Source: a phage
Strand: one strand, 5' to 3'
Assembly (NCBI GenBank): GCA_029945195.1
Contig: GCA_029945195.1_4117.1
Length of the DNA stretch: 64,000 nucleotides
Shown piece by piece: positions 2-14,743 of this stretch (position 1 is the stretch's first letter; every line of letters begins with the position of its first letter). The position numbers and the translations under genes are program-made. Below the pieces are notes generated by a model. The model was not told the origin of the DNA. It worked only from the letters and a program-made list of their open reading frames with translations, and did no database searches.

Positions 2-2641
2 AAAAGAACAATTCAAGGAATAAATGAACAAGTTTTTGATTCCAACGGTAACTTGGAATTAGATACTTATTCCAGAGATGAAGTACTAGATATAGTAAGT
101 ATGATGCCAATCTCCCATTATGGTTCACAAAACTATCTACCTGCGGGTGTTTCTGGGGATTTCAATGGTGCATCAGAAAACCAGTCACAACGTAGAAATA
201 AAATTTTATTAGAAAACGATGGTACACTAGTACTTTTACGTAGTGGGACAAACGGTAGTGTTGAGGGATTATTTTATTCATATTTGGCTAACGCATTATC
301 AGTTGATGACATGAGCCGTACAATTAACACTAGTCGTCAATACAAGCCTGGGTTTTTTGGTTCAAATAGAGTTGCGATTGGTTTATACAATACTGATCCA
401 AATATTTTACTCGGTAGATATATTGATACTTCTAACAGTACTAATGGTTTGTTCATATCAATTACCAATGGTACATTAGATGATAAATTGCATACTGGTT
501 TTTTCGTTAACCAAGCAGATATATCACCTGAAGGTGGTATTGAATATGCTATGATGGCAGAAGATGGTTCTATATATGTTTTTAACGTACTTAATGAAAA
601 TAACCAACTACAATTAGTTGTTGTAAAAGTTGTTTATAATATAAGCAATGGTACTTATACTGCAACTCGAATTACTGGATGGACTACTAAAACATTTTAT
701 AACACGACATATTCTGCACAAAATAATATGGTTATTACTAATCAGGTAACATCAACAAATATTGCTGATAAACCTTATGTGTATGTTCCACAAAATCTAC
801 GTGGTATTGGGATTTACATGACATCAATTGATTTATATGTTGCACAGCAGCCAGGAACGCAGAATTTCCGCTTTAGAATGAACGGGGACGCTTGGTTTAC
901 AATGGCAACATATAATACACGTCCACAGCATAGTTACAGTTTTGTGTTCAATATGAGTACTAAACAATGTACATTAGATGCGGGTAACGATATTGGTTCA
1001 TATCAAGCACCATTAGTTATAACTAATACTGGTTCGGCATTAGTTCCTACTGGTAACGTTTTAAATAACGATCCATTGTATAACCATGCAAATGCAAGAA
1101 ACATTTATAGTTCATATTTTTATTTGAATTCTGGTGAAGCTTTTTGTACTACATGTCCAAACTTAGCAGAACCATTACTTATGCAAAAAGCTAAGTTTCC
1201 TATTCAAATAGTTTATAGTATGCTGAATGTCCGTGCTGTACTTTCTACTGACTTCAAAGGTGGTATAGTTCGCCCGTCTTTTGGTTCAGCGGTTGGTTCA
1301 TTTATTAATGGTGTAGAATTACTACCAGATAACAGTACTAAACAATATTCACGTGCATCAGGTAGTGGTGGATTTAGACCATCATATGCAGTTCATAAAA
1401 GTACTCCTAATTTTACATTTAAATCATTATCTTTAGGAACAATACAAGGTTATGAACCTACAGTTGAACGTGCTAATGTTGATGATAATGCAAATAATAG
1501 AATTTTTATTAGTAGTATTTCTGGGTCAACTGTCACAACCAATGGTGGTATTTTTATGGTTGGGCAACGTTATTCACAATCATTATCCTATGATAAAAAC
1601 TTAAATGGCACAGGAATTATAAGCGTTACACAATCAGTACTGGACAATTTTAGAAATACTGAATATGCCAAAGTTCTAAGTGATTGGAATTTATCAGCAC
1701 AAGCATACCGTGATATGACACTATTTGTTCCACAACAAACAGACATTCCAGCTTTTGTTATGTTGAGTACAATTACTAATGATTATAGAAACTATATTAG
1801 AATTGCTGAAGTTAATGTCAATACTAGAGTTGGTAATATTACATCTATTACATTTAAGCGTTTAGTACTTGAGAATACGTATGGTGATAACTTTACACCA
1901 ACTGGGAATGGTTCGATTGCATCTTCTTCTGTTGGTTTGACCATATATGATGGTGGTTCATTCTACTTCATTGGTGGTTCTGACCCATTATCACATCCAA
2001 CAATAGGTAATACTGCAACTCATCAATTTAGAGCATATGTAACTAAATCAACTGCACAATTTACAAGTTTTATAATTACTGGATCTCATGCCAGTTATGA
2101 ACAAGGAAGTCAACCAGCAGCATTACCTGGTATTGGTTTTGGAATTTTTGAACCAATGGATTACTCAAATAAAATGACATTCAAAAAATATGGAACAACG
2201 ATTGCAGACTATAATAACTGGACTGCACAAGGTAGCCCAATTAACGTAGTATCCCAGGACGTTGCTCAAGGGTTTATTGTATATTTTACAGAGGAAACAC
2301 CAGTTATTCTTTCAGGTAAGTCATTTTCACTACCAGTTTCAAATATTGATTTGAGAACTATTAAGTCTAATCCAGCAAATACAACATTTTATGTATATGT
2401 TAAATTGGAACAAGGATTGGCAAACTATTACATAACTACTGATGTTATTTCTGAAACAGGGACAACTGCATATAATATTTTTTGGATAGGTACAATTCAA
2501 ACTAATGCAATTCAAATCGAAACAATTAATATACAAAAACGTTCCCGTTTAGATATATTTGGTGCTTCACTTGAATCAGCAGGTTCATCGTTCCCAGTTA
2601 GCTACGGTCTACCATCACAAACAGGAACCATAAACTGGTAA
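2..2641 (+). CDS. Large hypothetical protein, family A paralog (5' partial; reading frame open from window start)
   Basis: Frame is open from nt 2 with no upstream stop; N-terminal region and C-terminus (SFPVSYGLPSQTGTINW) are shared with the 3257..5986 product. Confidence 0.7.
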   Translation, partial: KRTIQGINEQVFDSNGNLELDTYSRDEVLDIVSMMPISHYGSQNYLPAGVSGDFNGASENQSQRRNKILLENDGTLVLLRSGTNGSVEGLFYSYLANALSVDDMSRTINTSRQYKPGFFGSNRVAIGLYNTDPNILLGRYIDTSNSTNGLFISITNGTLDDKLHTGFFVNQADISPEGGIEYAMMAEDGSIYVFNVLNENNQLQLVVVKVVYNISNGTYTATRITGWTTKTFYNTTYSAQNNMVITNQVTSTNIADKPYVYVPQNLRGIGIYMTSIDLYVAQQPGTQNFRFRMNGDAWFTMATYNTRPQHSYSFVFNMSTKQCTLDAGNDIGSYQAPLVITNTGSALVPTGNVLNNDPLYNHANARNIYSSYFYLNSGEAFCTTCPNLAEPLLMQKAKFPIQIVYSMLNVRAVLSTDFKGGIVRPSFGSAVGSFINGVELLPDNSTKQYSRASGSGGFRPSYAVHKSTPNFTFKSLSLGTIQGYEPTVERANVDDNANNRIFISSISGSTVTTNGGIFMVGQRYSQSLSYDKNLNGTGIISVTQSVLDNFRNTEYAKVLSDWNLSAQAYRDMTLFVPQQTDIPAFVMLSTITNDYRNYIRIAEVNVNTRVGNITSITFKRLVLENTYGDNFTPTGNGSIASSSVGLTIYDGGSFYFIGGSDPLSHPTIGNTATHQFRAYVTKSTAQFTSFIITGSHASYEQGSQPAALPGIGFGIFEPMDYSNKMTFKKYGTTIADYNNWTAQGSPINVVSQDVAQGFIVYFTEETPVILSGKSFSLPVSNIDLRTIKSNPANTTFYVYVKLEQGLANYYITTDVISETGTTAYNIFWIGTIQTNAIQIETINIQKRSRLDIFGASLESAGSSFPVSYGLPSQTGTINW

Positions 2642-2652
2642 AGGATTACATA

Positions 2653-3240
2653 ATGGCATATAAAATAAGAGCAGACCTTAAGGCAATGCAACAAGTTACA
2701 GTTCAGGGTAAAAGTACTGGTCTTGGTGTATTAGGTAATAATATGACTTATTACCCAACAAATTCAAATGGGGAATGTACATTCCCCTCTATTACCAAAG
2801 ATGAAGTTAACTTTATTGTCAATGGATTACCACTTACACAATACGGAGAATTGTATGATGACGCTAGTCTAAATATTACTTCATCAGGCTATAGTCTTAC
2901 ATTTAATAGACAGATACCATCATTTATTGGTGGTTATCTTTATAAATTTCCAGCAGTTTCTATTTTTGCTTCAACTGTTTCATCTGGAACACAAACACAA
3001 TACGTATATGCAACGTTAGTTCTCGGTGAACCAATTTATAAAATATCACCAACACAAATACAAGAATCTGAAATTATAATGTTTATTGGAACACTGACCG
3101 TTGGTACAAGTGGTATTACAAATATAAACATTAATAAAGTATCCAGATTTAGTACATATAGACCTAGTGTTACACAAAAAGGTTCTTCATTCCCAGTCAG
3201 TACTGGAAAACCATCAGAAACTGGTACAATTGGTTGGTAA
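2653..3240 (+). CDS. Hypothetical protein, short family A paralog (shares C-terminal module)
   Basis: ATG start 12 nt after upstream stop; C-terminus RFSTYRPSVTQKGSSFPVSTGKPSETGTIGW matches the ends of both flanking large proteins. Confidence 0.6.
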   Translation: MAYKIRADLKAMQQVTVQGKSTGLGVLGNNMTYYPTNSNGECTFPSITKDEVNFIVNGLPLTQYGELYDDASLNITSSGYSLTFNRQIPSFIGGYLYKFPAVSIFASTVSSGTQTQYVYATLVLGEPIYKISPTQIQESEIIMFIGTLTVGTSGITNININKVSRFSTYRPSVTQKGSSFPVSTGKPSETGTIGW

Positions 3241-3256
3241 ATTAAGGAAAAGAAAG

Positions 3257-5986
3257 ATGTCATCAAAACGAATTATAGGAAGTGCCGAGATCCTTGGGAA
3301 CTTGGCAATTGGACAAAGGTACGCTATGCGTACTTTTAATGGAACCTCACCGAATGCCAATACTGGAATTGTTCAATATCCAATATATAAGCGTTCAGAA
3401 GTTCAAAGTATTTTAGATATGTTGCCTATATCACGTGTAGGAGAAATGGATTACTTACCATTAAACGTAAGTGGGTCGTATGAAGGTGCTACACCTATGT
3501 CAAGTGACCAAGTAGTTCAGCCAACAATTATTGAAGATGATGGAACCGCCGTTGTTCTGCGTAGCGGAACCAATGGTAGTACTAAAGGTTTTTATTATTC
3601 ATTTATACGAGAACTCCGAAATATAACTATGATTTCACAAGAAAGTGTTATTTCAACCAATTCAATGTATAAACCTTCAATTATGAGTAGTACTGAAAAT
3701 ATTAAGTATTTTATTGGCTCTAATGGTTATGAGATGCTTGGATGTTTAAGTACTGAAGATAATTATATTTTTACTATAACCAATGGCACATTTAACGAAA
3801 TATCACATATTCATGCTAAAGTGCCAAGTACTTCTTTTGGTAATGATATGCCAATATATACACATATTGTTGGGACAAAGGTTTATATTTGGTGTAAAGA
3901 TAAAAGTGTTTCTAATTTAGGATTAGCACTTTCAATTTATACAGTAGAGCTAAGTGATGTGAAAGCAAGCTCAATGGAATCATTAACAAAAGTTACTGGG
4001 TTATCAGGTCAAACTGTTCGAAACACAAGTTATTCTGCATCTAATAACATAAGAGTGTTCGATAAATTATATAGTGTTGGTACTAGCTCGGATTCATTAT
4101 TCGAAGTTACATCACCAGTATCACGTGTAGAATTTTCAGACTATACAGACTTTAACATTCAAGCCAACGTTAGTCCTGATTTATCAAAAATACGTGTAAC
4201 TTTATATCCAACACATCGAATGGTTACACCTTTGTATATTTCAACAGTTTATGGTACTGGAATAAGTTTTGTTTATAATATAAACTCAAAATCTATGTCA
4301 CTAGATGGTAGTGCTCGTGCACCTGCAACTGTTTCATATAATAATGGATTTCAAGTTTCTAACCCATTTGAAATTAATATGGTCAACTTCACAGGGACAA
4401 CTGCTGCTGGTGTATTAGGAAACGCAGGTGGTTTATGTCAAACTAAAGATGGTTTGGTATTTGCATCTAAATTTAGATGGAGTTCAACTGAATTTTATGG
4501 TCTACAACGATATAAGGTTAGTGGTACACCGTTTGATTCATGGGTTGCCAGTACTAGAACCGCAAGTAACGTTATAAATGCAAACGTTTTACCAGTTTTT
4601 GGTAGTGCTGTTGGTGCAAACCTTTTAGGTGTACGTTTCATCGATAATAGAAAAATATTATTAGCATGTTCTGGTACGTATGATGATGTAACATATAATT
4701 ATAATAATACTGTTTTTTCTGAAATAGGTTCACAACCAACATATCAATATAACTCAGTTCAAAATAATACTACATTAAATGGTTTTGCACCACAATCTAA
4801 TCGTAAACAAATAGGCGATGATTTTACATACACTGCTATGATTTCTCTTGTTGATACCGATGGTAGTGTTAGATGCTATGGAACATCATTCATTGAAGGT
4901 GTATATAAAACAAGTGGTGGATTATTAAACCCAGATACTTTAGAATTTGATGAAACATATACAATAGAACCAACGGTATTAGAATCATTAAAACAAGATA
5001 TTTTTGCTAATATAGGAAACTCTGGCATTGTTGGCACACTATCTGGACAAATTGTATTATATTATGTACCTGATAATACTTTTTCTAAATCCATCGCAGT
5101 AGTTTCAGCATATAATCTTAACAATAACCAAGGTTATGCAATCTATGCCGAAGTTGATGTTGTATTATCTGGAACTAACATAACTTCAGCTACATTGGTG
5201 AGTACTAGATATGAGACACTTAGTTCTGTTACAGGAATTATTACTGAAGCATATATGAAACGTTGTACTGGTCTAACAGTTGCAAAATATTCAGGATTTG
5301 GTTACATTGGTGTTGATGCTGTTCATCAATTTTCACAACCAGGTAATGCACAATTTAAGATGATGATAGCTAAAACAGTAGATGGTGTCATAACATCAAA
5401 TCGTTTTTTATCATCTAGTTACATCCAACTTGGTGCAGCATATCAACATGGTGTTATTCCTGGTGTTGGTTTTGGATATTACAATTTTCAAGATTCTGAC
5501 TATCAAACCAAATCTGTATTCAGCGTTTTTGGTACAACATCTGCTGAAATGGATGGTTTAATTAGTGGAAATGGTAGCGTTAAAGAAAAGATTGTGGTAG
5601 TATCACAAGACGTTGCACAAGGATTCTCAGTGTACTTTACACGTGAAGTTCCGGTGTTTTTAGGTGGAATTTTCGACAGACTACCTATACAAAGTGTTGA
5701 TTTAAGTACTGTAAAAAGTAACCCAGCTAATACTACGTTCTATTTGTATATACAAATGAACAGGAATACTAAGAAAGCGTCATATGTTATTAGTACTGAA
5801 ACAATTGATGAATCTTTAACTAGCACTTACATTGGTAAGATAGTTACTGGAACTTCAGGAATAACTTCAATTGATACAGAAAAAGTAACTCGTTTTTTGA
5901 CATATCGTCCAAGTACAACGAAACGTGGTTCAGCGATACCTGCCAGTACTGGTGTACCATCAGGTCCAGGTACACGTTGGAAATAA
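3257..5986 (+). CDS. Large hypothetical protein, family A paralog
   Basis: ATG at 3257 preceded by AAGGAAAAG; the track start at 3167 lies inside the upstream gene; conserved N-terminal (LPIS..YLP..VSG, VVLRSGTNGS) and C-terminal modules. Confidence 0.7.
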   Translation: MSSKRIIGSAEILGNLAIGQRYAMRTFNGTSPNANTGIVQYPIYKRSEVQSILDMLPISRVGEMDYLPLNVSGSYEGATPMSSDQVVQPTIIEDDGTAVVLRSGTNGSTKGFYYSFIRELRNITMISQESVISTNSMYKPSIMSSTENIKYFIGSNGYEMLGCLSTEDNYIFTITNGTFNEISHIHAKVPSTSFGNDMPIYTHIVGTKVYIWCKDKSVSNLGLALSIYTVELSDVKASSMESLTKVTGLSGQTVRNTSYSASNNIRVFDKLYSVGTSSDSLFEVTSPVSRVEFSDYTDFNIQANVSPDLSKIRVTLYPTHRMVTPLYISTVYGTGISFVYNINSKSMSLDGSARAPATVSYNNGFQVSNPFEINMVNFTGTTAAGVLGNAGGLCQTKDGLVFASKFRWSSTEFYGLQRYKVSGTPFDSWVASTRTASNVINANVLPVFGSAVGANLLGVRFIDNRKILLACSGTYDDVTYNYNNTVFSEIGSQPTYQYNSVQNNTTLNGFAPQSNRKQIGDDFTYTAMISLVDTDGSVRCYGTSFIEGVYKTSGGLLNPDTLEFDETYTIEPTVLESLKQDIFANIGNSGIVGTLSGQIVLYYVPDNTFSKSIAVVSAYNLNNNQGYAIYAEVDVVLSGTNITSATLVSTRYETLSSVTGIITEAYMKRCTGLTVAKYSGFGYIGVDAVHQFSQPGNAQFKMMIAKTVDGVITSNRFLSSSYIQLGAAYQHGVIPGVGFGYYNFQDSDYQTKSVFSVFGTTSAEMDGLISGNGSVKEKIVVVSQDVAQGFSVYFTREVPVFLGGIFDRLPIQSVDLSTVKSNPANTTFYLYIQMNRNTKKASYVISTETIDESLTSTYIGKIVTGTSGITSIDTEKVTRFLTYRPSTTKRGSAIPASTGVPSGPGTRWK

Positions 5987-6053
5987 ATTTAAAGCTCGTC
6001 TATTGACGGGCTTTTCTTTTATGTGTATAATTGAATAAAAATAGGAGGAAATT

Positions 6054-6620
6054 ATGGTCAAAACTTTATTACCACCACCAAAACGTCACAAAATCAAAGA
6101 AATGAAAGAACAACGTACATTAAAGATGTACAACAATTTAGTTAAGTTACTGTGTAAAAGTCCATCGCTCAAAGCAGAGTTTAAAACTGATGATGACCGT
6201 AAAGCACTAATTGAGATGAAATATATGCTCAGTAAAATGTCCTTTTACAAATTTGTAAAAGAATACGCATCTGACCCATTTAGTCCTCGTTGGAGAGCCA
6301 AACCAAGAGAGTATTTTTACGGTGGTTCATATACAGATCGCATTCAAGACACAGTGATGGGAGTTGAATTTGAAATCGATTATGAGCCGAATGGTGAGGA
6401 AATCTTGCAGATTGAGAAACGTTTACCAAGTGAAGAAGAAATTTATGTTTATGCAAGAAAACTTTCAAATTACAGTTCAAGAATTACTCTAGGCAATTTA
6501 GATTCATTAATTATTTTCTATACACGTGTTGGTGTAGATAAGATGGTAACTAAACTCAATGAACTTTCATTACAACAAAAACAGATTAATGCATACAAAG
6601 ACATTACTGATTTATACTAA
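6054..6620 (+). CDS. Hypothetical protein, family B tandem paralog 1
   Basis: AGGAGG SD before ATG; shares KSPSLK...D.DR..L...KY.LSK motif with the next two genes. Confidence 0.65.
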   Translation: MVKTLLPPPKRHKIKEMKEQRTLKMYNNLVKLLCKSPSLKAEFKTDDDRKALIEMKYMLSKMSFYKFVKEYASDPFSPRWRAKPREYFYGGSYTDRIQDTVMGVEFEIDYEPNGEEILQIEKRLPSEEEIYVYARKLSNYSSRITLGNLDSLIIFYTRVGVDKMVTKLNELSLQQKQINAYKDITDLY

Positions 6621-6626
6621 TGAGGA

Positions 6627-7148
6627 ATGGATATGTTTTTTGGATCAGTTGGAAAACAAAACAGTACTTTAATTTGGCATGAAATTATCTTCAAAATTAT
6701 ATCTAAAAGCTACTCACTAAAGGATATTATCACCACAGATAATGATAGACGTATCCTGTTAGATGCAAAATATAAATTGAGCAAACACCCTTTACTTTCT
6801 TTAATCATTGATTACGTTAATGATTATGAATCTAGTCGTTGGAAGTGGGAAGACGGCGGTTTATTTCGTGGAAAAACATTCTACGGTGCGGAACGATATG
6901 TTTTCAGTGATGCATCAAATGGCGTTAAGTTTGTTATTAGAAACTTTAACTCCAAAGAAAATGATTATCTTGAAAGTGGAGTGAAAGTATATATCGATAA
7001 TAATAGCAATGTCCTAACATATGACGAATCACTAATTATGTTACAAATAATGCGTGGTGTTGAAGGTGTAAGAAACAACCTTACTAAATTGAAAATCCAG
7101 CAAAATGATATACATAATAGACAGAAAATTAAGGGTTTATATAAATGA
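6627..7148 (+). CDS. Hypothetical protein, family B tandem paralog 2
   Basis: Same N-terminal motif; start may instead be ATG 6633, which has better SD spacing. Confidence 0.6.
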   Translation: MDMFFGSVGKQNSTLIWHEIIFKIISKSYSLKDIITTDNDRRILLDAKYKLSKHPLLSLIIDYVNDYESSRWKWEDGGLFRGKTFYGAERYVFSDASNGVKFVIRNFNSKENDYLESGVKVYIDNNSNVLTYDESLIMLQIMRGVEGVRNNLTKLKIQQNDIHNRQKIKGLYK

Positions 7149-7654
7149 TTTCATTTTTCAAAAAGAAACAAAAAGTTGATGAAACAGGATTAGAATCGTT
7201 TCTATGGACTCTTATCATCAAAAAAAGTCCATTGATAAAAGAATATGCTATCAATGATGCTAATAGAAAAACTATCATTGAATACAAATACGAATTATCA
7301 AAATGTGATCCAATCGTTTATCACTTTGCGAAGTACTGTTCAAAAAATTTATCGGATATCACAATAGACCATGAGTCAGTTCCAATGAGCTTTCCTTATG
7401 GTGATTGGGTAGATACTTTTGATATTTTTGATGGGTCCAATGGATTCAGTTTCTTTTACTCGTCAAATAAAGCAAATGTTCGTATTAAAACAGAGATAGG
7501 TTGGGCACAGCATAGCTCAAATAAAGAAGATTATAATTTACTAGCTGACGTATACCGAAGTGTGAAGAATTCAAAGGATATTGATGAAAGAATTAAAAAG
7601 CAAAATCGTATTTCTTTATCACTTGAAACATACAAGTCAAAGTATGGTGGTTAA
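7145..7654 (+). CDS. Hypothetical protein, family B tandem paralog 3
   Basis: Start overlaps upstream stop (ATGA); same motif. Confidence 0.6.
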   Translation: MISFFKKKQKVDETGLESFLWTLIIKKSPLIKEYAINDANRKTIIEYKYELSKCDPIVYHFAKYCSKNLSDITIDHESVPMSFPYGDWVDTFDIFDGSNGFSFFYSSNKANVRIKTEIGWAQHSSNKEDYNLLADVYRSVKNSKDIDERIKKQNRISLSLETYKSKYGG

Positions 7655-7656
7655 CG

Positions 7657-8058
7657 ATGACTACAGTTGATGATATCTACAGCACTATACGCAATATGAG
7701 TACAGATAGAAAAGTATTTGGTGATAAAGAAAAATCTAAGTGTTATGGTATTGATTCTTTTGATATAATTTCTTATGAGTACAACACGAGTGGAAATAGT
7801 TCACTGAATATCGTCTGCCCTCGTGACCCAGAAAATAATTTTATGTATGTTGAAATTAATAATGATGGAATATTTTTTACAAAAGTTTTTAAAGGTGGAA
7901 TTAATTACGAACCAATTGAATGTATGAATGAAGAAACTTTCTTTCAAGAAGATACAATTATCAATTTAGGTTTTAGTTTTGATGATTATAAAACATTAGA
8001 ACATGACTTTAATCGTTATTATAACGGTTTCTTAAAGGAGTTAACAATTTATCTATGA
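7657..8058 (+). CDS. Hypothetical protein
   Basis: ORF tightly packed between neighbours; start overlaps upstream end. Confidence 0.5.
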   Translation: MTTVDDIYSTIRNMSTDRKVFGDKEKSKCYGIDSFDIISYEYNTSGNSSLNIVCPRDPENNFMYVEINNDGIFFTKVFKGGINYEPIECMNEETFFQEDTIINLGFSFDDYKTLEHDFNRYYNGFLKELTIYL

Positions 8059-10325
8059 ATAACCAATATGTTGAACAAACAATAGTGAAACACTTGGCTG
8101 GGTCACAAGCCTACGGAACCAGTACACCTGAAAGTGATACTGATTATCGTGGTATTTTTCTTGCTAATAAAGAATTTATTCTTACGCCATTCTATAAGGT
8201 CAAAGAAGTAGCTGATAAAAATGAAGAAGATACTAAATTCTATGAGTTAAATCAGTATTTAAAATTATACACTGAAGCCAACCCTAATATATTGGAATCA
8301 CTATGGGTCGAACCAGAACACATTGTAGAAAGTACTGAGATTTATGACTATCTTCGTTCATTTAACCAAAAACTTCTTAGTTCCAAGATTGCATTTTCAT
8401 ACACTGGATATGCATATAATCAGATTAAGCGTATGACAAATCATCACGGTTGGATGGATAAAGAGCGTATTGCTGAAAAACGATTAAATGAGATTTTAGA
8501 AGAACACCCTGTCGATGAGGTTCTTGCGTGGATGTATGATTCATTCCCACAGTATCTTGTTGAACGTTTAGATACATCCAACTTACATCCATTTAATGCT
8601 AAAAAGATTGATTTTGAAAAATATATGCGTGATACGTCATTGCAGTTAGTTTCGAAAAATCCATTAAAGCAATATCATTTTGTAAGATTAGTGCATAACT
8701 ACACTACTGAAAAAATTCTTGATCGTGATTTCAATTTATTGAATTTTAATAATGGTTATGAACTAATTCATTACGGAGAAAACATTTTTGCGATTATTAA
8801 AAATCCGAATGAAAGCACTATCAACGGTGATGGATCATTGCGTTATTTTTCTAAAGAGCGTAGTACTGAAGAGTTGAAAACTAAACCAGAACTAATTGTC
8901 AAATTTAACGAAAAAGAATATCAGGAAAATAGTGAGAATAGGAAAAGTTATCATAAATGGAAAGAAAATCGTAATGCCAAACGTGCTATTTTAGAATCAC
9001 AACACGGATACGACTGTTATAGTTTTGATACTGAATTCTTAACTAAAGATGGTTGGAAATTATTTGACGACATCACTGATAAAGATCTATTAGCGACTTT
9101 TGATAAAAATCACAAAATAGAGTATCAAAAATACACAGAACGTTTTGATAATTTATACAATGGAAATCTTTACCATTTCACTGGTCATCACCAAGATACG
9201 TTAGTGACTGCAAATCACAGAATGTATGTTAAGAATTATGCACGTAATCAGCAAAAAGATATGTCAGAATGGCAATTTGTTGAAGCAGCACAATTAAAAG
9301 AAACTTATAAAATTTTGAATACATTATCTCCAATAACAAAGGAATATAAAGATAAAAAAAGCCCAATTGACTATATGGATATCAAAGTTTATCTTCAACT
9401 GATGGGATGGTTTCTTTCAGATGGTAGTATAAGTTTTAGAGATGGAAAAGTAAAATCATTATACATTTCACAATCAAAAGCCAGTCCTGGTATGCGTTGT
9501 GCTTTATCAAAATACAAACAATCTGGACAAATGATATTTCAGGAATACATTAACGAAAGAAAAGATTACCAATCAAATGATGAATCAAGATTTGTATTTC
9601 CACGTGAAGTGGCTGAAGCATTATATAATGATTGTGGGCATGGATCATATAATAAAAGAATTCCAAATTGGGCATTTGATTTAACAAAACGAAAAATGGA
9701 TTTTCTGCTAAAAGGTTTGTTGCAAGGTGATGGTACAAAACGTAATTTGGTCAATCATGATGACACATATGTATATTATACTGCTAATTCATTATTAGCT
9801 GATGATGTTCAAAAACTAGCATTACTGTGCGGTTATGAAACATCGAAATGGGGACCATACACAAACGAAACTAATTTTGGTTATATTGAAATGTATCAAG
9901 TTCATATCAATATGAAACCTAAATCAGAAAAAATAAACATGAAACAAAATCTTGAAAAAATTCCAGTAACTAACTACAGAACTGTTTGTTTTTCAGTTCC
10001 GAACGGTACACTGGTTACTCGTAGAAATGGTAAAACTGCATTACATGGAAACTGTAAACATGCTATGCACACAATCCGACTTTTGAATAGTGCAGAAGAA
10101 GCATTACAAAGTGGAATTATTCAAGTTAAACGACCAGATGCACAAATGTTGATGGATATTCGTAATGGTAAATGGAAGTATGAAGAAGTCTTAGAATATT
10201 TCGATGATAAAGTACAATACATTCGTGATGTTCTATATAAGAAATCAGTACTTCCTAAAAAACCAAACATCAAGTTAGCATCAAAAATTATCATTGATAT
10301 TAGAGAAATGCAATGGTATAAGTAA
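8055..10325 (+). CDS. Pol-beta-superfamily nucleotidyltransferase (RNA-repair-type) interrupted by an intein
   Basis: N-terminal GSQAYGTSTPESDTDYRGIF matches the GS...SD.D nucleotidyltransferase motif; an internal ~346-aa insert carries intein and LAGLIDADG blocks. Confidence 0.7.
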   Translation: MNNQYVEQTIVKHLAGSQAYGTSTPESDTDYRGIFLANKEFILTPFYKVKEVADKNEEDTKFYELNQYLKLYTEANPNILESLWVEPEHIVESTEIYDYLRSFNQKLLSSKIAFSYTGYAYNQIKRMTNHHGWMDKERIAEKRLNEILEEHPVDEVLAWMYDSFPQYLVERLDTSNLHPFNAKKIDFEKYMRDTSLQLVSKNPLKQYHFVRLVHNYTTEKILDRDFNLLNFNNGYELIHYGENIFAIIKNPNESTINGDGSLRYFSKERSTEELKTKPELIVKFNEKEYQENSENRKSYHKWKENRNAKRAILESQHGYDCYSFDTEFLTKDGWKLFDDITDKDLLATFDKNHKIEYQKYTERFDNLYNGNLYHFTGHHQDTLVTANHRMYVKNYARNQQKDMSEWQFVEAAQLKETYKILNTLSPITKEYKDKKSPIDYMDIKVYLQLMGWFLSDGSISFRDGKVKSLYISQSKASPGMRCALSKYKQSGQMIFQEYINERKDYQSNDESRFVFPREVAEALYNDCGHGSYNKRIPNWAFDLTKRKMDFLLKGLLQGDGTKRNLVNHDDTYVYYTANSLLADDVQKLALLCGYETSKWGPYTNETNFGYIEMYQVHINMKPKSEKINMKQNLEKIPVTNYRTVCFSVPNGTLVTRRNGKTALHGNCKHAMHTIRLLNSAEEALQSGIIQVKRPDAQMLMDIRNGKWKYEEVLEYFDDKVQYIRDVLYKKSVLPKKPNIKLASKIIIDIREMQWYK
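9015..10052 (+). mobile_element. Intein with LAGLIDADG homing-endonuclease domain (boundaries approximate)
   Basis: Begins at Cys (CYSFDTEFLTKDGW, block A); TANH (block B); two LAGLIDADG-like motifs LMGWFLSDGSI and LLKGLLQGDGT; C-terminal ...VCFSVPNGTLV...ALHGN followed by Cys +1. Confidence 0.65.
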
Positions 10326-11031: not shown

Positions 11032-13821
11032 ATGTTAAACAATAATATTGATAATATTGTACAACTTCTTTATGGGCATCACAAATTTATTGAAAGAAAT
11101 ACTGGTGATACAATAGACCCAACAGTACAACATTATGTGGTGAATAATCAGGGTGTTTTGGCGAACAACCGTCATTTTATTAACTATTCTGCAATGGAAG
11201 GTCAACCAAACGGTGACGGGACAACAGAAGGTCAAAGTCTATTAATTTTAGGATACATTTATGCGTATCTGGCAACAAATGATCCAATGTTTTTAGATAA
11301 GGCAAAGTGGTACTGGGACGCATATCATCAGTACTTTTATGCTGGGCGTGAATTACCAGACCCACCAACCCCACTGCAATGTAACTGGATAGTTAATGCC
11401 AAAGAACCGATTTTGGCTAACTGGCCTTTAGCTGATGATGGATGGCCTACACATGGTGGTTTCAAGGGTGTAGAATTTACATTTACAAATGGACAATGTA
11501 AAATACCACATGGTGCACCTTATTATGGTCAGTTCTTGGATAAAGTAACATTTGCATTCAAAGGTGCTTTAGCATGGAACCAAATAAATGCGTCAGTAAA
11601 AGCATTATTACCAGATGGTAGTGTTGATTGGGATACACCAGGTGAACAATATGATGTTGACTGGATTATCGATTTCATGGGTAGAAAAATCGACTGGGAT
11701 GGTAATATTTTAGCAGAAGGTTTTGACGAATCTGAAAAAGGAACTGTTCAATTAAAGAATACAACAATTAATGGTGTATATAAATTAAATTTTGCAAATC
11801 GTCAACCAGTAGAATATGGTGGTGTGATAATTCAACGAAATGAAATGCAACACAACCGCCCTCTTCATGTTCCAATTGATTTGGAATTTGCTGATAACGC
11901 ATCAGATGCAGAATTATGGTTTAGTGATGCTTCTTATTTGTTATATAAAATAACAAAAGAAAGAAAACATTATTTGGGTTGGAAATGTTCACTACTAACG
12001 TGTTATGCTTATGGTGATATTGACTCCAGAGATAAATTTTTCAGACAAAGTACAATTGTAACCACACCATTCACTGATGGTATTTCCTATGAATATTTTT
12101 ATCCTAGTGATGCTATTGCTAAGTTTGGTAGAAATTCTCTAGGATATATTACTATCAGGCAAGACCAAAGTGCACAAAGTACTATGGAACAACAAGCTAT
12201 TTGGTTCAGGGTCAATGCTGATTCTAAATTACTTGTAGACTATGGTGGTGTATGTGATGATGGTAAGCCGTTATCATTTAAACCAGTACTGGAATTGTCA
12301 AAAACAAAAAATGACCATGATGTTGTTCGTTATCGTTGTGGCTTACCGGAAAGTAAAGACCAAAATATCACACATTCATTAACACCTTTAAGTGCATTTG
12401 TTAGAGAAAAGAAAGCAGATGGTTCCCCTTATATAATTGCTGATAGTAGAATTGTTGTTCCTTATGGTGCAGCTACGTCCGAAATGATATATAGTACTGA
12501 TATATTAGTTACACGCCGCGATACCATTAATCAGTTAGTTTGTGGTGAAGATGATGGTGCTGTTATTGGATTTTGGCTATTAGCAACAAATAAGTCTGAA
12601 GTTAAATCTTTTACCTATCGTTCATATGAAGATGATTACAATATAAGAATTGTAGATGATAATGGTTGGAGATGGTGGTGGATGATTCCTGCAACACACG
12701 GGGAATGGACTACAATCACACTAAGTTCAGATACATTACGTTTATCTGGGTATCAGCCAAATCATCCAAGTTCTGACCCAAGACCATATGCACCAGTTTA
12801 TAGTGAACTAGAAGATATTACTATTTTACCTGATACAACCCCAGTAGATGGTGTTGCTGCAATAATTGATTGGTATTGTATTAATGACATTCCAGAATTA
12901 TACACGGATGCTGACGGTGATGACTATACTATGACATTTTCAATAACAATTGCAGGTGAATCACCATATACTGCACAGTTAGGGGATTGTGTAATCAAAG
13001 ATTATTTGTTAAACTCATTGCATTACACACCAGGAACAATACCATTTTCTAACATCACTGACCCGTATGCGAATCAGTATTCAGGATGGCGTGGTTTACC
13101 GTATCCAGGTTATCAATATCCTGTGATATATTGTTTTAAAGATCAGCCAGTAGATAACACACGCTTAGGAAACATGTTAAGCTTTATGAAAGATTCCCAA
13201 ACATGGTTTACTCAACAATTCGGTACTGTTGGTCCGTGTGCACAAGCATATGTTTGGAACCGCTGGGATAACTTAAAATATGGTGAACCAGATACATTTA
13301 CTATGCTACATTGGGGTGATCAAGCATGGAGTGGGTATGAACCACGTGCGTTCTTTGGGGCTGCCAGAGCATGGCAAGAACTCGCAGAGAGAGGAATTGA
13401 ACCACCAGCAGATCTTGTTGAATTTTGTGAGAATTGGATTCACTTTTTAATTCAATTTCAAAAAGATAATGATGGTCGTTCACCAACAATCTTCAATAAA
13501 GATGGCACAGTTGAAGGTCCAGATTGGGACTTTACAGGTCATATGTGTGGGTTGTGGTTAGCTGGGGCTTGTGCTGCTGGATTGGCTGGATGTAAAATAG
13601 AAGGTCTAACAACACTCGCTGATAACTTAGTTCTCGAACTTCAAAAGAATTATGTTATTGTAAATCCAGGTTCACCAATGAATGGTTCATGGAGTCCAGC
13701 AGTTAGAGAAGGTACTGATAATGGTATGTTTTTTGGTTTCTGGGCAGGTGAGATTATGCGTGGATTGGGATTATACTCAATGTACCGCTTAAACACACCA
13801 AATCGTTTCCGTGATTTATAA
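11032..13821 (+). CDS. Large hypothetical protein (929 aa)
   Basis: AGGAG SD, ATG start, long uninterrupted ORF; Trp-rich segments; function not recognised. Confidence 0.7.
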   Translation: MLNNNIDNIVQLLYGHHKFIERNTGDTIDPTVQHYVVNNQGVLANNRHFINYSAMEGQPNGDGTTEGQSLLILGYIYAYLATNDPMFLDKAKWYWDAYHQYFYAGRELPDPPTPLQCNWIVNAKEPILANWPLADDGWPTHGGFKGVEFTFTNGQCKIPHGAPYYGQFLDKVTFAFKGALAWNQINASVKALLPDGSVDWDTPGEQYDVDWIIDFMGRKIDWDGNILAEGFDESEKGTVQLKNTTINGVYKLNFANRQPVEYGGVIIQRNEMQHNRPLHVPIDLEFADNASDAELWFSDASYLLYKITKERKHYLGWKCSLLTCYAYGDIDSRDKFFRQSTIVTTPFTDGISYEYFYPSDAIAKFGRNSLGYITIRQDQSAQSTMEQQAIWFRVNADSKLLVDYGGVCDDGKPLSFKPVLELSKTKNDHDVVRYRCGLPESKDQNITHSLTPLSAFVREKKADGSPYIIADSRIVVPYGAATSEMIYSTDILVTRRDTINQLVCGEDDGAVIGFWLLATNKSEVKSFTYRSYEDDYNIRIVDDNGWRWWWMIPATHGEWTTITLSSDTLRLSGYQPNHPSSDPRPYAPVYSELEDITILPDTTPVDGVAAIIDWYCINDIPELYTDADGDDYTMTFSITIAGESPYTAQLGDCVIKDYLLNSLHYTPGTIPFSNITDPYANQYSGWRGLPYPGYQYPVIYCFKDQPVDNTRLGNMLSFMKDSQTWFTQQFGTVGPCAQAYVWNRWDNLKYGEPDTFTMLHWGDQAWSGYEPRAFFGAARAWQELAERGIEPPADLVEFCENWIHFLIQFQKDNDGRSPTIFNKDGTVEGPDWDFTGHMCGLWLAGACAAGLAGCKIEGLTTLADNLVLELQKNYVIVNPGSPMNGSWSPAVREGTDNGMFFGFWAGEIMRGLGLYSMYRLNTPNRFRDL

Positions 13822-13822
13822 C

Positions 13823-13851
13823 TTGACATAGAAAAAGTAATTATGTATAAT
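13823..13851 (+). promoter_or_regulatory. Sigma70-like promoter (TTGACA, 17-nt spacer, TG-n-TATAAT)
   Basis: Perfect -35 and -10 hexamers with extended -10 TG. Confidence 0.5.
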
Positions 13852-13852
13852 C

Positions 13853-13883
13853 AGAGAACTTCATATGGAGTTCTCTTTTTTTA
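13853..13883 (+). terminator. Rho-independent terminator hairpin
   Basis: 8-bp stem AGAGAACT/AGTTCTCT followed by a T7 run. Confidence 0.6.
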
Positions 13884-13895
13884 TAAGGTGATAAA

Positions 13896-14315
13896 ATGTT
13901 AAATGAACGTATTAAAAATGCACTACATGTATTGAACCAAGAAGTAAATTCTATTGATAAAAGTACTGACCGTTATAAAGTAATGCATGAAATCAAACAA
14001 GAATTGGAATCTATTAATAAGGGAGAATGGTGGTATCTTCAGCCCGAATATCAAACTCGTGAATTAAACGATGTTGAAAAAGAAATTGTCAAATTCATCA
14101 CTACTCGTTACTGTGATACATCAGAGAATGAGGTATCAGCGAACTTCAATCTTACTAAATTGGAAGTCGAAGAAAAATTCAATTTTGATTGGCTTGATTG
14201 GATTGAAATGGTCATGGAACTAGAAGAAAAATTCAATGTTGAAGTTGATGAAAAGTTCGAGAATAATGAAACGAAGCTGTATGAACTAGTAGAACATATT
14301 CAAAAAATGTTGTAA
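13896..14315 (+). CDS. Acidic protein with acyl-carrier-protein-like C-terminal region
   Basis: C-terminal DWLDWIEMVMELEEKFNVEVDEKFE resembles the ACP helix II region, but the DSL serine position holds Trp. Confidence 0.35.
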   Translation: MLNERIKNALHVLNQEVNSIDKSTDRYKVMHEIKQELESINKGEWWYLQPEYQTRELNDVEKEIVKFITTRYCDTSENEVSANFNLTKLEVEEKFNFDWLDWIEMVMELEEKFNVEVDEKFENNETKLYELVEHIQKML

Positions 14316-14368
14316 AACTATACAATTGTATACTCTAAATAATATCATCAACTATAGGAGATATTATT

Positions 14369-14743
14369 ATGAGTATGTTAGAAATAATTGTTTCAAAAAT
14401 TCTTATTCCATTTTGGAAACCAATTTCTTTTGTATTATTAATTGGCGGTTCAGCTTATGCTGGTTGGGAAGCTAATACTTATTACAGTGGATATCAACAA
14501 AGCATAGAGCAACAAATAGCTAAAAAAGTTGATACCGCCTTGGATAAAATGCAACAAGAAAATGCAAAAAATTACCTTGAAACTAAAAAAATCATGGAAG
14601 ATAATGCTAAAGTTATTGAAACAAAGGTTCCTTTTATTGTAGAACGTGAAGTTTATAAGAATGTATGTTTAGATGAAGATGGTGTAAAAGTACTGAATGA
14701 ACTAAAACAAAATTCTCAAGCAGCGAGGAATAAATTCAAATGA
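14369..14743 (+). CDS. Inner-membrane spanin (Rz-like)
   Basis: N-terminal TM segment (ILIPFWKPISFVLLIGGSAYAGW), then a charged helical region; its end overlaps the next gene. Confidence 0.55.
   Translation: MSMLEIIVSKILIPFWKPISFVLLIGGSAYAGWEANTYYSGYQQSIEQQIAKKVDTALDKMQQENAKNYLETKKIMEDNAKVIETKVPFIVEREVYKNVCLDEDGVKVLNELKQNSQAARNKFK

Follow-up and report, generated by a model that had tools for sequence, protein, structure and literature searches.

The stretch of phage DNA analysed here, 64,000 nucleotides (nt) of contig GCA_029945195.1_4117.1 (GenBank assembly GCA_029945195.1; henceforth the window), opens with three tandem genes on the plus strand, which we call A, B and C and whose products resemble each other at both ends (Table 1). 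On the evidence presented below, there is in our view about an even chance that they form a late operon for a three-chain, low-copy tail adhesin, probably heterotrimeric, in which B is a chain without a head.

Gene models and closest relatives

The first 8 kb of the window are 99.2–99.8% identical to the Asteriusvirus jumbo coliphages UB, JP4, PBECO4, phAPEC6 and slurp01, with UB (99.8%) and JP4 (99.7%) among the closest. Gene A is cut at its 5' end by the border of the window, which retains 879 amino acids (aa) of a complete product of 898 aa; in the phAPEC6 record its start lies 57 nt upstream of window position 2, and the complete coding sequence spans positions 11945-14641 of the phAPEC6 locus (L001). 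An earlier note on this DNA, made from the sequence alone, had recognised that this gene was 5'-partial but gave its length as 862 aa or more. The same note described the product of gene C as a protein of 939 aa, following a mechanical listing of open reading frames (ORFs) in which the gene starts at GTG 3167. We rejected this start and placed C at 3257-5986, with a product of 909 aa, because ATG 3257 follows an AAGGAA Shine-Dalgarno sequence and corresponds to the methionine at which 30 homologs of 906–926 aa begin (the orthologs, of 909–921 aa, start with MSSKRIIGS).

Both A and C match the profile of phrog_3573 over its full length (E 1.7e-269 and 2e-266, respectively), and B matches phrog_26864 across profile positions 1–195/195 (E 4.4e-115). 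These two families, as well as phrog_7449, are of unknown function. PHROGs keeps the long and the short forms as separate families, and its entries record neither the relationship between the two forms nor the three-gene sets described below. In the GenBank record of phAPEC6, B and C carry no annotation (L001 14653-17986, equivalent to window 2653-5986); both ORFs are intact there, the B protein being 100% identical, and the record has instead a 37-aa ORF, gp322c, inside C.

Table 1. Genes, protein modules and expression signals of the A-B-C locus. Positions are those of the window; pLDDT, predicted local distance difference test score.
Feature	Position	Strand	Evidence or remarks
Gene A, 5'-partial, position-1 paralog	2..2641	+	Translation; equals phAPEC6 gp323c and JP4_233
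MPISHYG, LPxSxYG-type motif of A, end of N-terminal module	104..124	+	Seen in sequence
C-terminal shoulder-like module and conserved tail of A	2267..2638	+	hmmsearch E 4.5e-46, residues 756-879 of the window translation
Shine-Dalgarno-like AAGGA, 7 nt before ATG of B	2641..2645	+	Read from sequence
Gene B, 195 aa, putative position-2 paralog minus centre ("headless" chain)	2653..3240	+	phrog_26864 match, N-terminal profile
N-terminal module of B, residues 1-66, including LPLTQYG at 2827-2847	2653..2850	+	Pairwise and profile searches
Shoulder-like beta-sandwich of B, residues 77-162	2881..3138	+	
Conserved C-terminal tail of B, residues 163-195, RFSTYRPS..GSSFPVSTG.PS.TGTI.W	3139..3237	+	pLDDT <50 in monomer model, strongly conserved
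Shine-Dalgarno-like AAGGAA, 7 nt before ATG of C	3244..3249	+	Read from sequence
Gene C, 909 aa, position-3 paralog	3257..5986	+	phrog_3573 match; equals JP4_235
N-terminal extension of C, residues 1-75, LPISRVG at 3422-3442	3257..3481	+	pLDDT <50; 25% of columns >=90% conserved
Central "head" of C, predicted beta-propeller region (~residues 76-575) and beta domain (~576-775)	3482..5581	+	
Shoulder-like domain of C, residues 776-878	5582..5890	+	Homologous to B module; 28% of columns >=90% conserved
Conserved tail of C, residues 879-909	5891..5983	+	pLDDT mostly 31-38; 68% of columns >=90% conserved
Intrinsic terminator after C, 10-bp stem and T-run	5991..6014	+	Terminator annotated at the same place in Munch
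Near-consensus sigma-70-like promoter for the next gene	6003..6031	+	TTGACG, 17-nt spacer, TATAAT; 11/12 matches

Shared end modules and a common centre

That the three ORFs end in a homologous segment, the central observation of the earlier note, held up on formal alignment. BLASTP of the C-termini gave 43% identity over 120 aa between B and C (E 6e-24) and 36% over 125 aa between B and A (E 1e-16), and profile searches with this module reached E-values of 1e-46 to 1e-61; by these alignments it is about twice as long (~120 aa) as the ~60 aa originally estimated. An N-terminal module of ~65 aa, which ends in LP[ILV][ST]x[FY]G (LPxSxYG type), is also common to the three products. It had been described for the two large proteins, which do share it, but B carries it too, with pairwise E-values of 5e-4 and 1e-3 against the other two and profile matches of its N-terminus to A and C at ~1e-4. 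The LPxSxYG motif was found in 103 of 190 family members, compared to 1.2% of shuffled sequences.

Between these modules the picture differs from the one first drawn. A and C are homologous along their entire length (28% identity, E 6e-62), with identities per 50 aa of 34–52% at the ends and 9–31% in the centres. The centres are thus divergent, as had been stated, but they are not unrelated, and the idea of a modular family with variable cores gives way to another one: A, C and their relatives share a single homologous beta-propeller region, and what varies is its presence or absence rather than the identity of a swapped module. The distance from the motif to the C-terminal module is ~18 aa in the short forms and 600–785 aa in the long ones, so that the propeller region acts like an insert placed between the two halves of one assembly unit.

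Gene B as a shortened middle paralog

In CBB, GAP32 and related phages, the equivalent position after nrdD and nrdG is taken by three paralogs of ~900 aa. Among these, A most resembles the first (47% identity to CBB gp147) and C the third (36% to gp149), and B aligns with residues 1–66 and ~800–919 of CBB gp148. A profile built from B residues 1–76 recovered all large paralogs of position 2, with E-values from 1e-25 to 1e-18, and the other chains at 1e-7 or worse. Given that the N-terminal profile favours position-2 paralogs and that both ends align to gp148, B is, judged from these alignments, the ortholog of the middle paralog (e.g. CBB gp148) minus ~720 internal residues. Rather than a stand-alone version of the C-terminal module, as it had been called, it would be a position-2 chain that has lost its centre and kept both end modules. 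One caveat remains, in that B clusters with other short forms, and not with the position-2 long chains, in a neighbour-joining tree built from the 120-aa modules. We attribute this placement to the short alignment and the long branches, and have given more weight to the N-terminal profile and the gene position.

An origin by a large internal deletion could also be expected of a decaying, functionless remnant of the lost paralog. The conservation of the gene speaks so clearly against such a remnant that we rejected it as effectively refuted, with a probability close to nil. Five diverged phages, including Ecwhy_1, Munch, Hallingskeid and A4 (39–72% protein identity), have an intact ORF of 190–196 aa preceded by a Shine-Dalgarno sequence of its own, and the ratio of nonsynonymous to synonymous substitution rates (dN/dS) is 0.19–0.55, a rough range as dS is saturated. 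Furthermore, there are at least 12 clusters at 90% identity (many more at 50%), and analogous short chains recur in other lineages.

Sets of three genes in jumbo phages

An exhaustive profile search for the family, which is found in Rak2-like phages and chimalliviruses, retrieved 534 clusters at 50% identity, 316 of them with E <=1e-10. Protein lengths are bimodal (~120–260 aa and ~880–1200 aa), and in 161 of 170 members the module ends 0–9 residues from the C-terminus. We surveyed 50 loci, in part with a sub-family alignment of the module, classifying chains as large (L), medium (M) or short (S). Tandem sets of exactly three module-bearing genes were the norm in most of the lineages surveyed, in the following arrangements: L-S-L in Asteriusvirus and relatives, L-L-L in CBB, GAP32 and Yersinia phage fHe-Yen9-04, M-L-L in Agricanvirus, S-L-L in loci L023, L024, L030 and L046, S-L-M in L021 and L022, S-L-S in L012, and two L-S-S cassettes each in several uncultured jumbo phages. 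The second cassette of one lineage has a middle gene too diverged to be detected.

Short chains did not all arise at the position of B. Forms of 193 aa nest within the chain-1 clade and align to A residues 4–61 and 774–898 (58% identity in the module), and a 568-aa form belongs to chain 3. From these sequence relationships, at least three separate deletions have removed the centre, each time keeping both ends and leaving the gene count at three.

The double cassettes, seen in L013 (6400-17132) and also in L031-L040 and L047, come from uncultured jumbo phages of ~250 kb and encode 959+233+238 aa and 981+233+244 aa. After each cassette there is an ORF of 206–214 aa that lacks the module, with a GH19 lysozyme-like gene after and a PAAR gene upstream, and their short chains carry an N-terminal NPH-type tail-fibre segment. 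In two proteins of chimalliviruses, the 1727-aa SPN3US protein (L005 3107-8290) and the 1159-aa Agricanvirus gp20 (L004 8415-11864), the module is internal and ~150–320 residues follow it.

Predicted structures and conservation

Structures were modelled as monomers for B (195 aa) and C (909 aa, AlphaFold2). The model of C (mean pLDDT 83, predicted template modelling score 0.78) consists of an all-beta centre (residues 76–775) and a small beta-sandwich (776–878), with low-confidence segments at residues 1–71 and 879–909 and a pLDDT of 59 in the block 871–880. The core of the B model (~residues 70–160) has pLDDT values of 78–94, its last 33 residues are below 50, and the mean of the whole model is 65. 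On this predicted model the shared C-terminal module has the shoulder beta-sandwich fold of phage receptor-binding proteins (RBPs) and TssK.

Columns that are at least 90% conserved among 30 sequences account for 68% of the tail, 28% of the shoulder, 25% of the N-terminal extension and only 12% of the centre. The tail and the N-terminal extension look disordered in the monomer models, yet together with the shoulder they are the most conserved parts of the protein, a pattern typical of segments that become folded only when the complex assembles. The predicted shoulder fold, the high conservation of the termini and the three independent deletions that kept both of them thus support the common attachment or assembly domain that the earlier note had envisaged, if not the variable cores attached to it.

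A Foldseek search of the PDB with the 909-aa model of C returned only generic tandem propellers with low TM-scores. The best propeller matches are six-bladed lectins and sialidases, with phiKZ gp131 outside the top 60. A reading of the centre as a sialidase (GH33) was rejected, as the sequence contains no Asp-boxes. Searches of Pfam and NCBIfam gave no family for A, B, C or ten diverse relatives (no Pfam match even at E 1), and nothing significant came from PDB sequence and profile searches that used A1, A2, B, C, SPN3US gp098 and EL gp115, gp116 and gp118; the sole near match in the sequence searches, PHIKZ049 at E 0.52, was treated as noise. A tblastn search with SPN3US gp098 found no phiKZ homolog.

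Virion evidence and genomic neighbourhood

Virion proteomics, which the earlier note had named as a check, is available for two of the relatives. Purified phAPEC6 virions contain gp323c (A), detected with 4 peptides; that proteome could not report B and C because both are unannotated in the phAPEC6 record. Liquid chromatography-tandem mass spectrometry (LC-MS/MS) of purified JP4 virions detected JP4_233 (A) and JP4_235 (C) with 2 peptides each, at low and similar abundances (1.8e6 and 2.3e6) compared to 1.4e8 for a major protein. The published data therefore show A and C to be virion proteins, but B is not among the JP4 proteins. For CBB, the mass-spectrometry table does not include CBB_147 to CBB_149, so the label "structural protein" that these genes carry provides no direct evidence from that phage.

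The presence of A and C and the absence of B in the JP4 list would be expected if B were not a virion protein at all but an assembly factor that mimics the end modules, on which A and C would be templated or capped as they fold and oligomerise, and which would afterwards leave. Chaperones of fibres tend to be small proteins with genes beside those of the fibres. Such a role seems improbable to us, since a missing 195-aa protein is expected at a depth at which A and C themselves gave 2 peptides each. Moreover, the full-length orthologs of B are ordinary paralogs of ~916 aa annotated as structural (CBB gp148), and other phages have a shortened chain 1 or chain 3 instead, an argument for structural chains that are interchangeable.

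As for where in the virion these proteins may be located, the neighbourhood of several homologs points indirectly to the tail or baseplate. In EL, gp114 and gp115 adjoin a gene whose product is homologous to the central spike protein gp164 of phiKZ (E 1e-21), in OBP the spike gene gp146 is close to OBP_143 and OBP_144, and a metagenomic homolog in L013 is near a PAAR gene. Elsewhere, short forms have N-termini typical of tail-fibre proteins. A different location would be the "hairy" whiskers of the tail sheath or capsid described for phAPEC6 and CBB, the proteins of which are unassigned in both phages; trimeric "triskelion" fibres have been seen on the phAPEC6 capsid, and a trimeric hub bearing three propeller arms would resemble them. 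We regard this as quite improbable. The trio also occurs in GAP32, a phage with no reported whiskers, in which the authors of the CBB study expected the whisker genes to be absent, homologs are widespread in chimalliviruses next to baseplate spike genes, and the very low abundance in JP4 virions is unlike that of a protein forming many fibres per particle. Both of these explanations, the assembly factor and the whiskers, are among the less likely ones.

Expression of the trio

The three genes are separated by gaps of only 11 nt (A-B) and 16 nt (B-C), each has a Shine-Dalgarno-like sequence, and the trio is bracketed by intrinsic terminators, one just after nrdG and the other following C. The T4 late-promoter consensus is TATAAATA. 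Its sole copy in 76 kb (and in the 32-kb phAPEC6 locus) is located 35 nt before gene A, at L001 11903-11910, i.e. ~98-91 nt upstream of window position 1. On both strands of the 64-kb window there were 0 copies versus 10.4 ± 3.1 expected. A [T/C/A]ATAAATA motif, a terminator and a GATATCT element are conserved before gene A in six diverged phages. These findings suggest a genuine promoter signal that is counter-selected in these phages. From its position before gene A, its rarity and the conservation of [T/C/A]ATAAATA, we infer that A-B-C is one late transcription unit.

The sigma-70-like promoter of the next gene overlaps the terminator after C, its -35 element lying within the loop and the descending stem.

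Comparison with known adhesins and fibres

The proteins that provide the structural precedent, p2 RBP, 1358 RBP, SPP1 gp22 and TssK, share only the shoulder domain, which forms trimers with a central cavity that holds a loop of the baseplate partner and docks the trimers onto baseplates (PMC7291167). In p2 RBP the shoulder is followed by an interlaced trimeric neck (PMC7291167), and the long tail fibre of cyanomyophage A-1(L) is attached to the baseplate wedge through its shoulder. The trio shows no detectable sequence homology to the RBP/TssK members in PDB sequence and profile searches, Pfam or NCBIfam, and differs from them in architecture. Where the domain layout of the structural matches is documented, the shoulder of the RBP/TssK proteins is N-terminal, followed by a neck and a C-terminal head; here it is C-terminal with only a tail of 30 aa after it, and the putative binding head of A and C lies upstream of the shoulder, after the N-terminal motif. 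There are also three paralogous chains here, against one in the RBP/TssK shoulder proteins. Similarly, A-1(L) gp34 (PDB 8kec) combines an N-terminal shoulder with a T4 gp37-like fibrous arm, whereas here a C-terminal shoulder goes with a globular beta-propeller.

In concept the closest known precedent is phiKZ gp131-gp135, although no relationship in sequence or fold was found. These are also jumbo-phage fibre paralogs that share one attachment domain and differ elsewhere; gp131 has a beta-propeller, and these proteins have been proposed to build a hetero-oligomeric fibre base (PMC13250141). Their shared domain, however, is an N-terminal six-helix bundle, as opposed to the C-terminal beta-sandwich of the trio, whose sequences matched no phiKZ chain in the PDB and showed no combination of a gp131-type N-terminal domain with a seven-bladed propeller. 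The DUF7941 "fibre cloud" proteins of chimalliviruses (Goslar gp22 and gp23) are another family of jumbo-phage virion paralogs, in which a region disordered in the monomer docks on the globular domain of another protomer. They are highly abundant in virions, in contrast to the rare A and C. The genes of Erwinia phage RAY listed for DUF7941 (gp8, 9, 11, 215 and 218) differ from those matching the trio family (~gp18-20), and the DUF7941 fibre proteins are probably a different family.

A proposed three-chain tail adhesin

Putting these observations together, we propose that the A-B-C unit encodes three paralogous chains of a low-copy tail protein, most likely at the baseplate periphery. Each chain would consist of the ~65-aa N-terminal segment ending in LPxSxYG and of a C-terminal ~90-aa beta-sandwich of the shoulder fold followed by a 30-aa Gly/Ser/Pro-rich tail ending in Trp. 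These end modules together could serve as an oligomerisation and docking unit that folds only on assembly. The tail would occupy the place of the interlaced trimeric neck that comes after the shoulder in phage p2 RBP, which would explain its disordered look in the monomer model. In A and C, ~700 aa between the end modules would form a head with a predicted lectin/sialidase-like beta-propeller and a beta domain, presumably binding host surface glycans. B would have been kept in spite of its missing head as its end modules are still needed, one of each chain co-assembling into a heterotrimer. The adhesin would then have two heads in the phage described here, three in CBB and GAP32, and one in other jumbo phages.

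The heterotrimer step is speculative, and we give it an even chance or somewhat less. The simplest explanation for three genes that persist through repeated head loss would be a single heterotrimer that contains each chain once. The complete version of this model, an obligate heterotrimer on an inverted C-terminal shoulder and neck, with inserted propeller heads, a valency tuned from one to three by head deletion and chains that are never lost, we hold only tentatively, as somewhat short of even.

Alternatively, each paralog could form its own homotrimer. The three homotrimers may occupy three docking sites, or be joined end-to-end with the N-terminal extension of one placed in the shoulder cavity of the next, in the way the Dit "hand" inserts into the p2 RBP shoulders; B would then be a connector or stub. 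All documented shoulder-domain proteins are homotrimeric (PMC7291167), N- and C-terminal modules on every chain would suit head-to-tail joining, and head-to-tail polymerising fibre proteins have been reported from a jumbo phage (DUF7941 of Goslar). Three-gene sets with retained ends would fit three obligatory segments equally well. What makes homotrimers on balance unlikely, though they are the main alternative and meet with no direct objection, is that independent segments should lose whole genes as easily as centres, yet the gene count stays at three while centres have been lost repeatedly.

Several observations weigh against the three-chain adhesin. Trimerisation and hetero-assembly are argued by analogy and from gene counts, and the gene counts are not uniform: EL and the related contigs L041, L044, L049 and L050 have two module genes only, SPN3US has one (internal) copy of the module, and OBP at least one. 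The fold match comes from the 195-aa model, which has a low mean pLDDT in spite of a better core, and the C-terminal position of the shoulder reverses the documented order. To this can be added that B was missing from the JP4 virions, and that in Rak2-like phages the trio is located beside nrdD and nrdG, outside the main structural block.

Most tail-periphery proteins of jumbo phages are unassigned. The outer baseplate and fibres of Goslar could not be modelled, and for phiKZ only backbone or predicted models were fitted. The family described here, with at least 534 clusters at 50% identity and no Pfam, NCBIfam or PDB relative or assigned function, adds to this a putative fold, domain boundaries marked by deletions and a rule of three chains with variable heads, all of which may serve as hypotheses for cryo-electron microscopy fitting and host-range engineering. 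If the heterotrimer is true, it would illustrate clearly how an asymmetric receptor-binding trimer can evolve in valency through head loss.

Genes downstream of the trio

Directly after the trio, the window contains three tandem small paralogs (6054-7654, plus strand) of 188, 173 and 169 aa, none of them with a Pfam match. The first two are 30% identical (E 1e-15) and have a common D.DR..L...KY.LSK motif. They are followed by a 756-aa ORF (8055-10325, plus strand) with an RlaP-type nucleotidyltransferase domain at its N-terminus and, at residues 551–610, a LAGLIDADG domain. As its phAPEC6 ortholog gp316c has only 410 aa, the ORF carries an intein-like insertion of ~346 aa, from C-YSFDTEF to HGN-C. 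Further downstream, a 929-aa ORF (11032-13821, plus strand) without the shared module or a Pfam match has its counterpart in phAPEC6 gp314c, a protein detected in virions and carrying a tail fibre annotation. It represents a second gene for a virion protein close to the trio and outside the main structural block.

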